NCBI RefSeq assembly: GCF_003334255.1
Contig: NZ_QOWU01000132.1
DNA from: Escherichia coli
Lineage (GTDB): Bacteria > Pseudomonadota > Gammaproteobacteria > Enterobacterales > Enterobacteriaceae
DNA length: 2,594 nucleotides
Reading direction: 5' to 3' (one strand)
Within the stretch, counting starts at the first letter, position 1, and the number at the start of each line of letters is the position of its first letter. Below are positions 1-1,392 of the stretch, in pieces. Both the position numbers and the translations under genes were made by a program. Under the pieces are notes generated by a model. The model saw only the letters and a list, made by a program, of their open reading frames with translations, did no database searches and was not told the origin of the DNA.

Positions 1-1029
1 CCTGAGCTTGGGCTGGTGGTCCTTAAGCCGGGCCGTGAATCCATACAGATATTTCATAATCCTCGAGTGCTGGTGGAGCCGGAACCGAAAAGCATGTGCG
101 GCCTGCCATCCGGAGTCGTCCCTGCCGTTCGCCAGCCGCTGGCGGAGGATAAATCATTACTGCCATTTTTCAGCAATGAGCGTGTGATTCGTGCTGCTGG
201 CGGCGCTGGTGCACTGTCTGACTGGCTGTTGCGCCATATTAAATCCTGCCAGTGGCCACACGGTGATTATCACCACAGTGAAACCGTCATTCACCGTTAT
301 GGTACCGGCGCAATGGTGTTGTGCTGGCACTGCGACAACCAGTTGTGTGACCAGACCTCAGAATCACTTGAGCAACTTGCTCACCAAAACTTGTCAGCAT
401 GGATGATTGACGTCATCCGTCACGCAATCAGCGGTACGCAGGAGAGGGAGTTATCGCTGGCCGAATTATCCTGGTGGGCGGTCTGCAATCAGGTGGCTGA
501 TGCGCTTCCGGAGTCTGTATTGTGTCGTTCACTGGGATTACCGGTGGAAAAAATCCGCTCCGTATACCGTGAGAGTGACATCGTACCGGGAGAACAGACT
601 GCCACCAGCATACTGAAGCAGCGCACAAAAAATATTGCGCTGCCACTTCACGTCCACCAGCAACAGCCCCCACTCCAGGAAAAGACGTTAGTAAGCATCG
701 CCGTTGATCCGGAGTCTCCGGCTCAGTATCTCCAGCGCCAGAAACCACAACGGGAAGAGATGCCTGTATACACGCGCTGGGTAAAAACGCAGAAATGCAT
801 GACGTGCGGTAATCAGGCAGATGATCCGCATCACATCATTGGTCATGGCCTGGGAGGTATGGGAACAAAGGCTGATGATTTGTTTGTTATTCCGCTGTGC
901 CGTAAATGTCATAACGAACTGCACGCCGGGGTAAAAGATTTTGAAGAAAAACACGGCAGCCAGCTGTTGTTGCTGATTCGTTTTTTAATGCACGCGAGAA
1001 ATTCGGGTGTCCTGAAGTGGAAAGCATGA
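1..1029 (+). CDS. Prophage nin-region protein with tandem HNH-like zinc-binding motifs (DUF968/YdfU-like, putative nuclease); possibly 5'-partial
   Basis: Long open frame ending at TGA 1027-1029. The ORF track starts it at GTG 16, but the frame is open back to base 1, so the true start may lie upstream of the window. C-terminal motif CMTCGNQADDPHHIIGHGLGGMGTKADDLFVIPLCRKCHNELH (nt 796-924) and a degenerate N-terminal copy SCQWPHGDYHHSETVIHRYGTGAMVLCWHCDNQLC (nt 244-348). Sits immediately upstream of rusA and Q, as nin-region genes do in lambdoid phages. Family name is from memory of motifs, not a search. Confidence 0.75.
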   Translation, partial: PELGLVVLKPGRESIQIFHNPRVLVEPEPKSMCGLPSGVVPAVRQPLAEDKSLLPFFSNERVIRAAGGAGALSDWLLRHIKSCQWPHGDYHHSETVIHRYGTGAMVLCWHCDNQLCDQTSESLEQLAHQNLSAWMIDVIRHAISGTQERELSLAELSWWAVCNQVADALPESVLCRSLGLPVEKIRSVYRESDIVPGEQTATSILKQRTKNIALPLHVHQQQPPLQEKTLVSIAVDPESPAQYLQRQKPQREEMPVYTRWVKTQKCMTCGNQADDPHHIIGHGLGGMGTKADDLFVIPLCRKCHNELHAGVKDFEEKHGSQLLLLIRFLMHARNSGVLKWKA

Positions 1030-1392
1030 ATGACTGAACGCATAGAATTTGTTTTGCCTTACCCGCCGACGGTGAATACCTACTGGCGACGTCATGGCAA
1101 TACGTATTTCATCTCGGAGGCCGGAAAGCGTTATCGCCGTGATGTGGCGCTAATTGTTCGCCAGCAGCGGCTGAAATTAAACCTGTCCGGAAGGCTGGCG
1201 ATAAAGGTGATTGCAGAGCCACCGGATAAGCGTCGTCGCGACCTGGACAATATCCTGAAAGCACCGCTGGATGCGCTGACGCATGCGGGAGTGTTAATGG
1301 ACGATGAGCAGTTTGATGAAATCAATATCGTTCGTGGTCAGCCAGTATCTGGTGGACGTCTGGGGGTGAAGATTTACCCCATAATGCATTAA
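1030..1392 (+). CDS. rusA: RusA-family Holliday junction resolvase (prophage-encoded)
   Basis: 120-aa ORF, the same length as E. coli RusA. Conserved PDKRRRDLDN block (RusA catalytic Asp region; K-12 RusA has PDRRRRDLDN), with further acidic residues in LMDDEQFDE. ATG 1030 directly abuts the upstream stop (TGA-ATG). Position between nin-type gene and Q is typical for lambdoid phages. Confidence 0.85.
   Translation: MTERIEFVLPYPPTVNTYWRRHGNTYFISEAGKRYRRDVALIVRQQRLKLNLSGRLAIKVIAEPPDKRRRDLDNILKAPLDALTHAGVLMDDEQFDEINIVRGQPVSGGRLGVKIYPIMH

Follow-up and report, generated by a model that had tools for sequence, protein, structure and literature searches.

A zero-nucleotide junction between a DUF968/YdfU His-Me gene and rusA in an Escherichia coli prophage, and its possible translational coupling

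The window (the whole stretch of 2,594 nucleotides of E. coli DNA analysed here) covers part of a lambdoid prophage module with the order hok - small ORF - DUF968/YdfU His-Me - rusA - Q, lying just 5' of the late promoter region. Q is the third member of a tightly packed DUF968-rusA-Q string; in annotated relatives the junctions in this string that neighbour the DUF968-rusA junction have spacings of +1 and -4 nt. The features on which the analysis rests are as follows.

1-1029, + strand: DUF968/YdfU-family His-Me (HNH-like) gene, 3' 1029 nt (ORF, Pfam, PHROG, annotation)
700-1100, + strand: mosaic cassette of His-Me domain, junction and first rusA codons, with alleles of type A (abutment) and type B (+12 nt, SD)
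796-927, + strand: putative His-Me finger core, C261-A304 of the window ORF, CMTCGNQADDPHHIIGHGLGGMGTKADDLFVIPLCRKCHNELHA (alignment to YbcO, PDB 3G27, and McrA HNH motifs)
1019-1024, + strand: SD-like GGAAAG, effectively non-functional as an SD by anti-SD duplex energy
1026-1037, + strand: out-of-frame mini-ORF ATG AAT GAC TGA (junction comparison, in-silico deletion)
1027-1029, + strand: TGA stop of the DUF968 gene (sequence and ORF list)
1030-1032, + strand: ATG start of rusA, in the same frame as the upstream gene (ORF and three annotations)
1030-1392, + strand: rusA, predicted RusA-family Holliday junction resolvase, 120 aa (PHROG 34, PDB 1Q8R, PF05866 homologues)
1390-1410, + strand: rusA-Q junction, with a premature TAA at 1390-1392 and the ancestral stop TGA at 1408-1410 overlapping the Q ATG at 1407-1409
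1407-2228, + strand: Q-type antiterminator, 273 aa (PHROG 127 and 25523, E ~1e-111; annotations of relatives)

The upstream gene does not open at GTG 16: annotated relatives place the true start some 30 nt to the left of the window, and the gene is a 352-aa CDS in both ON470612 and NZ_CP025913. Its HNH-like identity, proposed in an earlier note on this DNA, is borne out by matches of the product to Pfam DUF968 (PF06147; E = 4.3e-63, residues 145-329 of the window ORF), to HNHc_6 (E = 2.7e-7) and to the 'HNH endonuclease' family PHROG 96 (E = 1.4e-155). PGAP names an identical protein 'DUF968 domain-containing protein', and an NCBIfam search with the protein gave no family match. The conserved His and paired Cys of the His-Me (HNH-like) motif are present, and the motif HHIIGHGLGGMGTK...CRKCHNELH aligns to YbcO (PDB 3G27), the phmmer match being weak (E = 0.38); the C-terminal 99 aa match the YbcO family phrog_131 (E = 2.9e-9), and hhalign against YbcO-like proteins gave a probability of 79% (E = 1.6e-5). 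These matches place the product in DUF968/YdfU, a family of group 7 of the His-Me finger superfamily together with DUF1364/YbcO, and predict it to be a nuclease. We found no biochemically characterised member of the DUF968/YdfU group, and a recombination role for the DUF968/YbcO group has only been hypothesised (PMC5714182). An apparent internal duplication of the HNH-like motif (N-terminal CQWPHGDYHH...CWHCDN against the C-terminal motif) was rejected as not significant (BLASTP E = 0.26).

The rusA identity claimed earlier also stands. The product matches PHROG 34 (E = 8.2e-56) and PDB 1Q8R/2H8C (E = 2.3e-21 over residues 7-115), and its close homologues carry PF05866. The catalytic aspartates D70, D72 and D91 of E. 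coli RusA have their counterparts in D71, D73 and D92, and the segments KRRRDLDN and MDDEQ line up with RRRRDLDN and LDDAQ of 1Q8R, so that both the aspartates and the arginine-rich loop are kept. The RusA structure paper covers these residues, and on expression it says only that rusA stays silent unless an IS2 or IS10 insertion switches on its transcription (PMC1636454). Against NCBIfam PRK09786 the window protein scores 80 where the cut-off is 200, this model being an 'exception' specific to K-12. The product belongs to the RusA family (PF05866) on these matches, and Holliday-junction cleavage is predicted for it.

At its 3' end the window rusA is shortened by six codons through a nonsense change at codon 121 (TAA at 1390-1392), a position at which the L001 sequence has GAA; a 126-aa RusA with an ATGA overlap to Q is found in 54 of 74 type-A loci. 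The change uncouples rusA from Q and could in principle affect the supply of Q, the late-gene switch that also controls toxin expression in Shiga-toxin phages, though this is speculative.

The DUF968-rusA junction itself (1018-1040) reads TGGAAAGCATGAATGACTGAACG. As the earlier note had reported, the TGA at 1027-1029 is followed directly by the ATG at 1030-1032, so the distance is 0 nt and both ORFs share one frame. The same stop and start are called by three independent annotations of near-identical DNA: ON470612 (CDS 5971-7029 / 7030-7410, abutting at 0 nt), LC567818 (identical calls) and the RefSeq PGAP annotation of NZ_CP025913 (CDS 2092-3150 / 3151-3531, abutting). There is no alternative in-frame start for rusA, the codon 5' of the ATG being a stop, and the next in-frame ATG, GTG or TTG inside the gene would cost a conserved N-terminal strand. 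The TGA allele also contains an ATG at 1026, which the earlier note does not mention; in the TAA allele, which reads CATAAATG, this ATG is missing.

Neither a promoter nor an RBS of its own, either of which the earlier note had named as evidence against coupling, is apparent for rusA. The best anti-SD duplex in the 20 nt 5' of the gene comprises 3 bp at -3.3 kcal/mol against the 16S 3' end, while the median 20-mer of the window reaches -3.0 kcal/mol and 42% of all its 20-mers match the value of the GGAAAG region. That motif had rightly been called weak; judged by duplex energy it is at the window background, and the SD of the window rusA is effectively absent. A consensus scan of the whole window found no sigma-70-like promoter, against 2.3 expected in shuffles, and we rejected an internal promoter for rusA on this basis. 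The only terminator-like candidate nearby, at 954-975 with a T run, has a weak stem (z = -0.22 against shuffles), is not conserved in type-B loci and was set aside as chance. By consensus scans, then, the DUF968 gene and rusA can share one transcript with neither promoter nor terminator between them. Rfam returned nothing at the junction (1000-1060), its matches elsewhere being tRNA hits and sub-threshold ones.

The junction is typical rather than exceptional. Tight spacing is routine in the closest annotated phage, where 10 of 18 same-strand neighbouring CDS pairs lie at -8 to +4 nt, among them another 0-nt abutment and a +1 junction just upstream. Across E. coli, 24% of unidirectional gene pairs lie at -8 to +6 nt, 0-nt abutments forming a minor class beside the peaks at -4 and -1 (PMC10666635). 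The 0-nt abutment was present in 74 of 87 close RusA loci, with TAA as the stop in 40 and TGA in 34; with at least 80% coverage, a junction-spanning probe is matched in 1,746 complete E. coli genomes, and the allele also occurs in the deposited records of Escherichia phages vB_EcoS-640R1 and vB_EcoS-813R8. With RusA identities of 91-100%, the 74 loci that share the abutment are closely related; the conservation of their spacing therefore says little about selection, and we discarded it as a sign of such. The junction is already known, being annotated in more than 1,000 E. coli genomes, and the His-Me/rusA adjacency is published. It matters little alone, since touching junctions with probable coupling are routine in phage operons.

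Comparison with other alleles of the same pair is mildly useful. The surveyed designs for the His-Me-rusA junction have spacings of -14, -4, 0 and +12 nt. The +12 nt design carries an AAGAGG SD, and the ATGA or GTGA overlaps (DLP12 ybcO-rusA and others) carry a strong one; sister junctions have moderate to strong anti-SD duplexes of -6.5 to -11.8 kcal/mol. Of the types surveyed, only that of the window lacks a usable SD. Type B, found in phage Evi, E. coli ATCC 11775 and O157:H7 prophages, has the same three genes with the same rusA and Q, and its DUF968 shares the N-terminal two thirds with the window protein (80-97% identity). It differs in that 12 nt separate the TAA stop of DUF968 from rusA, a spacer containing AAGAGG or AAGGGG as the SD (-6.5 to -7.3 kcal/mol, with one AAGAGA variant at -3.8), and in that its RusA begins MRIEF or MLIDL where the window protein begins MTERIEF. 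For pairs of the +9 to +12 class in E. coli, which includes the type-B spacing, initiation is believed to depend mainly on the downstream gene's own SD (PMC10666635). Identity to type-B loci falls to 54-72% in the block at about 700-1100, against 80-100% on both flanks, and E. coli matches to type-B loci begin exactly at window position 1031.

In the K-12 cryptic prophage DLP12, as in the window, a YbcO-type His-Me gene lies directly 5' of rusA and is followed by Q, and the C-terminal tails are alike (...GVIKA* against ...GVLKWKA*). DLP12 differs in having a 4-nt GTGA overlap, a GTG start and a strong SD, AAAGAGGGGG (-11.8 kcal/mol), within the ybcO tail. YbcO is moreover a single domain of 96 aa, whereas the window protein is a DUF968 protein of about 352 aa with a long N-terminal region, and the DLP12 RusA is only distantly similar to that of the window. 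The ATG at 1026 is the positional homologue of the overlapping A/GTGA start in DLP12-type and P0101-type loci. Deletion in silico of either 1026-1029 or 1034-1037 brings back an ATGA overlap and leaves RusA intact, with MTER... or MNER... as its N terminus; P0101-type RusA begins MNE... and the DLP12-type begins GTG-Asn. The 0-nt geometry, one of several apparently interchangeable junction designs for a conserved pair, is probably derived from the commoner ATGA overlap: insertion of 4 nt would have left a vestigial AUG at 1026. With at least four such designs, and SDs from none to strong, the pair offers a natural series for testing the effect of geometry and SD on protein ratio.

How, then, is RusA translated from the abutting allele? 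On the anatomy of the junction, we consider it somewhat probable that termination-reinitiation at the TGA/ATG abutment drives RusA synthesis. The DUF968 gene and rusA would be co-transcribed in the lambdoid prophage, ribosomes ending DUF968 at 1027-1029 would restart at the AUG at 1030-1032, and RusA synthesis would then need, and be limited by, translation of the upstream gene. This is the most economical reading because there is no SD and no promoter, and because a spacing of 0 nt is among those at which reinitiation works (about -8 to +6 nt, PMC10666635). In E. coli reporters reinitiation is efficient at overlaps, with 30-95% kept at +2 nt and 80-100% lost at +38 nt (PMC10666635), and the 0-nt spacing persists through the TGA/TAA polymorphism of the stop (34 against 40 of the 74 loci). 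The vestigial AUG at 1026 of the TGA allele has the favoured -4 geometry and may divert reinitiating ribosomes into a dead-end ORF of three codons. The good SDs of sister alleles show that obligatory coupling, as predicted for the window, would not be general to the gene pair.

Two sets of known systems are instructive. Gene VII of phage f1, a documented SD-less site made functional by coupling alone, resembles the arrangement proposed here in that it has no functional RBS and depends on adjacent terminating ribosomes (PMC12548453); the genes, the phage type and the biology are unrelated to ours, and coupling is experimental there and deduced from the junction here. The pairs hyfH-hyfI, ydbH-ynbE and menD-menH studied by Huber et al. 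are likewise co-directional, with very short spacing and termination-reinitiation, and coupling was still substantial in two of the three at +2 nt (PMC10666635); they natively overlap by 1 nt, whereas the window junction abuts at 0.

Coupling of this kind need not set RusA dosage in the manner earlier envisaged. The earlier note had tied RusA dosage to the upstream protein, but coupling can saturate and yields need not track one another (PMC12548453); in phage IKe the output of gene VII changed little when translation upstream of it was altered (PMC12548453), a warning against assuming proportional dosage. Nor did our full-text searches turn up a statement that overproduced E. coli RusA is toxic, as had been asserted; the only toxic case found was the SPP1 RusA-family protein G44P in B. 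subtilis. The supposed need for low RusA levels sits poorly with sister junctions of the same pair, which bear SDs of -6.5 to -11.8 kcal/mol.

A less probable account, though one deserving some weight, is that rusA is translated independently by SD-less de novo initiation at the AUG at 1030, the abutment reflecting genome compaction with no regulatory consequence. The surroundings of the start are rich in purines and in A, and the local RNA is unstructured (z = +0.5; equalled or bettered by 136 of 200 shuffles), while the prevalence of tight junctions in the closest phage (10 of 18) means that the spacing needs no special cause. Since the start region, slightly less structured than random, suits SD-independent initiation, some or most RusA could be made independently, and this observation counts against coupling. 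On the other hand, anti-SD pairing at the window rusA is only at background level, every other junction type of the pair keeps an SD, which suggests that rusA normally needs help with initiation, and terminating ribosomes sit on the start at 0 nt, making some reinitiation hard to avoid (PMC10666635).

If termination-reinitiation does operate, what might it serve? The idea that the two genes form a functional pair, also raised earlier, is supported by their adjacency across diverged lineages: three E. coli RusA subfamilies have a YbcO-type His-Me gene directly 5' of rusA, as do two of the three more distant lineages that we checked, and DUF968 and DUF1364 have been grouped with RusA and Q named as neighbours (PMC5714182). 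One could go further and propose that the YbcO/DUF968 nuclease and RusA are subunits, or obligatorily co-acting steps, of one recombination or junction-processing machine whose ratio the junction sets, a conjecture that we regard as doubtful. Conservation of the pair across RusA lineages with less than 50% identity fits this, as does the enrichment of very short spacings among genes for heteromeric complexes (PMC10666635); DUF968-RusA fusions have been reported (PMC4118853) and were not reproduced among the best RusA representatives. If true, the SD-less abutment would be a 'hard-coupled' natural version and the +12/SD allele a 'soft-coupled' one. In any case, the finding points to a His-Me nuclease family, as yet uncharacterised, that is nearly always found alongside RusA.

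It is improbable that mosaic recombination or an indel left the junction as a neutral scar in a prophage undergoing decay, with rusA barely translated. The His-Me domain and junction are a swapped cassette (identity 54-72% over about 700-1100), the SD has been lost, and the window rusA bears a nonsense change at codon 121, all of which such decay would accommodate. The RusA ORF is nevertheless intact with its catalytic residues kept, the shortened protein, at 120 aa, is as long as active K-12 RusA, and the abutment is carried by the genomes and phage records noted above.

More improbable still is coupling by RNA unfolding, in which the purine-rich GGAAAGCA before the start would pair with the U-rich rusA codons 7-10, UUGUUUUGCC, and be melted by the upstream ribosome. 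Such pairing appears in the MFE folds of types A and B and in a consensus fold of eight sequences, but the energies of -9.1 and -13.1 kcal/mol are small and do not surpass those of shuffles (z = +0.5 and +0.56), the consensus fold reaches -6.5 kcal/mol with compensatory change in none of 10 pairs, and the pairing is absent from the DLP12-type junction. A start-occluding structure is therefore not supported. Junction RNA is in general no more structured than shuffles (z = +0.06 and +0.50), and, as it is unstructured and lacks compensatory pairs, an occluding hairpin is not needed to explain the anatomy.

Finally, that readthrough or stop loss yields a DUF968-RusA fusion protein is scarcely credible. 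The ORFs share a frame and are parted only by a stop codon, but of the 74 loci with the abutment 40 have TAA, a less leaky stop than TGA; in other alleles the two genes overlap or lie out of frame (-4, -1, -14), and no His-Me::RusA fusion occurs among the best 120 close homologues. Sixteen longer proteins from the best 150 RusA representatives had no His-Me motif evident by eye, and one of them is a tandem RusA-RusA protein.

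The window (2,594 nt) comes from a lambdoid E. coli prophage, and all of its genes lie on the + strand. It contains the following features:

1-1029, + strand: 3' part of the DUF968/YdfU gene (Pfam DUF968 E = 4e-63, HNHc_6 E = 3e-7, PHROG 96 'HNH endonuclease' E = 1e-155)
1030-1392, + strand: rusA, 120 aa (PHROG 34 E = 8e-56; PDB 1Q8R E = 2e-21)
1407-2228, + strand: Q-type antiterminator, 273 aa
2309-2335: strong terminator
2372-2447: tRNA with a CAT anticodon

The catalytic motifs of the window RusA, RRRDLDN and DDxQ, align with PDB 1Q8R. Escherichia phages vB_EcoS-640R1 and vB_EcoS-813R8 are 98% identical to the window DNA; gene order in the nearest annotated records is hok - 279-nt ORF - DUF968 - rusA - Q, and in the nearest of these the DUF968 CDS starts about 30 nt left of the window. 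A 301-nt probe spanning the DUF968-rusA junction matched 3,097 of 5,426 complete E. coli genomes, with coverage of 80% or more in 1,746 of those.

The stop-start abutment described in the earlier note is real, correctly read and ordinary, a putative example of a textbook arrangement in an already associated gene pair. The rusA ATG (1030-1032) lies directly 3' of the DUF968 stop TGA (1027-1029), the two ORFs share one reading frame, and the GenBank submitters' and PGAP calls on near-identical DNA give identical coordinates for stop and start. GGAAAG (1019-1024) is the sole Shine-Dalgarno (SD)-like element before rusA. With the 16S 3' end it forms at best a 3-bp duplex (-3.3 kcal/mol), a value equalled or beaten by 42% of arbitrary 20-mers from the window, so to call this SD weak was right and, if anything, generous. 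Nor is a 0-nt junction unusual: 10 of 18 same-strand neighbouring CDS pairs in vB_EcoS-640R1 are spaced at -8 to +4 nt, with values of +1, 0 and -4 for the three junctions of this gene string, and in E. coli overall 24% of unidirectional pairs fall at -8 to +6 nt (PMC10666635). A second ATG (1026-1028), overlooked in the earlier note, opens a dead-end 3-codon ORF (ATG AAT GAC TGA, 1026-1037) overlapping the rusA start. This vestigial ATG is out of frame, sits at the -4 'ATGA' position and is missing from the TAA allele (CATAAATG); it might draw reinitiating ribosomes away from AUG 1030.

How, then, is rusA translated? As a promoter scan found no promoter-like site in the window, there is no SD to speak of and the AUG directly follows the stop, termination-reinitiation is the most economical route to RusA: ribosomes ending at the DUF968 stop would restart at the adjoining rusA AUG. 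In E. coli reporters, reinitiation is efficient at overlaps, 30-95% is kept at +2 nt and it is nearly gone at +38 nt (PMC10666635); SD-less starts that function through coupling alone are also known, f1 gene VII being an example cited in PMC12548453. SD-independent de novo initiation may also occur at rusA, since the junction RNA is unstructured and the context A-rich. Coupling via melting of an inhibitory hairpin has little support, as the junction folds no more stably than shuffled sequences (z = +0.06, +0.50) and the weak purine/U-rich pairing common to type A and type B junctions (below) lacks compensatory changes. On balance we lean slightly towards translational coupling as the main route to RusA.

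To place this junction we surveyed 248 sequences, comprising 247 further RusA loci and the window, drawn from IMG/VR, annotated phages and E. coli genomes with three RusA queries, recording for each its spacing from the upstream ORF and its anti-SD pairing energy.

Junction designs at the surveyed RusA loci (loci; spacing in nt; stop and start; SD and pairing energy in kcal/mol; upstream gene)
Window subfamily, type A: 74 of 87; 0; TGA in 34, TAA in 40, ATG; no SD, -3.3; DUF968
Window subfamily, type B: 9 of 87; +12; TAA, ATG; AAGAGG/AAGGGG in the spacer, -6.5 to -7.3 (-3.8 in one AAGAGA variant); DUF968
Window subfamily, type C: 4 of 87; -1; TGATG; AGGAGG, -11.6; unrelated 90-aa ORF
DLP12/K-12 prophage subfamily: 66 of 81; -4; GTGA; AAAGAGGGGG, -11.8 in nearly all (-8.3 in one variant); YbcO
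P0101 subfamily: 80 of 80; -4; ATGA; GAAGGAGGGG, -11.8 in 73 of 80, the rest -10.7 to -11.5; YbcO-like

An SD is present in all the other junction types surveyed, and the window allele is therefore the only design with essentially none for rusA. The result is a mild curiosity, a natural series of junction designs with the window allele as its SD-less extreme. The MG1655 annotation confirms the DLP12 overlap (ybcO 573084-573374, rusA 573371-573733), and of three more distant RusA lineages (46-48% identity), two have a YbcO-type gene that overlaps rusA, by 4 or 14 nt. The other 15 DLP12-subfamily loci mostly have the same junction sequence with a different upstream reading frame called, and we interpret these as remnants of ybcO. 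In 12 DLP12-type loci (L132 and 11 more) the ybcO-rusA junction sequence is kept and the upstream frame differs, with an apparent gap of +19; these look like ybcO remnants, apparently frameshifted, before an intact rusA.

Identity between types A and B is 80-97% across the initial ~700 nt of the window and 85-100% beyond ~1100, but falls to 54-72% in between, in a block that spans the His-Me domain and runs through the junction into the first rusA codons. Megablast matches to type-B genomes begin exactly at window 1031. Compared with three collected loci (L003, L084, L085), window 700-1100, carrying the His-Me domain of DUF968 and the junction, behaves like a cassette that is swapped on its own; in phages HannyBb, Tritos and PhiR42_1 the match is confined to window 1-721. 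The type-A and type-B junctions nevertheless align base for base around a common TGACTGA core, the differences being small indels. How the 0-nt junction may have arisen is suggested by the lineages with a -4 overlap. The upstream proteins of the window and these lineages have homologous tails (GVIKA, GKIKS and GVLKWKA before the stop), and the out-of-frame ATG 1026 occupies the site of the overlapping A/GTGA start. Removing four bases in silico (1026-1029 or 1034-1037) brings back the canonical ATGA overlap with RusA intact, starting MTER or MNER. The SD of the DLP12 and P0101 types is encoded by K-E-G codons in the His-Me tail, a position at which the window has N-S-G (AAT TCG GGT).

That the two genes form a functional pair, as previously proposed, gains comparative support, a YbcO-family gene immediately preceding rusA in nearly all the lineages examined. 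The window His-Me domain belongs to the YbcO family (phrog_131 E = 2.9e-9; hhalign E = 1.6e-5). The association is already published: DUF968 and DUF1364 make up His-Me group 7, typically found beside RusA and Q (PMC5714182). DUF968-RusA fusions have been reported from CDD (PMC4118853). We saw none in the 120 top-ranking close homologues, nor in 16 longer proteins that we examined out of the first 150 representatives. One RusA representative, P0122 (268 aa), has two tandem RusA domains and, because RusA is normally a homodimer, may be a covalently linked dimer. RusA dosage could plausibly follow the upstream protein, though saturation of coupling means that it need not. The suggestion that RusA toxicity explains low coupled expression is unsupported, since sister alleles have strong SDs and the searchable literature documents toxicity only for the SPP1 RusA-family protein in B. 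subtilis. K-12 rusA is transcriptionally silent until activated by IS insertions. A second Cys/His-rich motif (CQWPHGDYHH...LCWHCDNQL) lies in the N-terminal region of DUF968, at residues ~78-110 (window 250-345); it looks like the C-terminal His-Me motif, with a non-significant self-comparison (E = 0.26), and the Pfam DUF968 match spans residues 145-329 only.

At the other end of rusA, TAA 1390-1392 is a nonsense change relative to GAA in vB_EcoS-640R1. The change costs rusA its last 6 codons and, by disrupting the ATGA overlap with Q (Q ATG 1407, ancestral stop TGA 1408-1410), opens a gap of 14 nt. This allele occurs in 9 type-A sequences, the window included, and one type-B locus; 54 of 74 type-A loci retain a 126-aa RusA. 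Q is the late-gene switch, and the change could alter its coupling to rusA. Q residues ~158-218 (window 1875-2060) carry repeated CxxCxGxG motifs, with weak matches to the DnaJ zinc-finger region (TIGR02349, E = 1.4e-6) and anti-TRAP protein.

Following Q, region 2229-2335 has a strong intrinsic terminator (a stem at 2309-2328 followed by a run of T) and looks like a late-promoter leader with a tR'-type terminator, the predicted site of Q action. A promoter scan found no consensus promoter there, and Rfam gave only a sub-threshold Trp_leader match (25.5 bits against a gathering score of 41). For the tRNA at 2372-2447 the ARAGORN call is tRNA-Met and the PGAP call, on identical DNA, tRNA-Ile. 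A degenerate tRNA-like sequence at 2461-2521, which drew no ARAGORN call, scores just above threshold in Rfam (31.2 bits, model positions 7-64). Together they are reminiscent of the ileZ-argN-argO tRNA cluster that follows Q in Stx phages.
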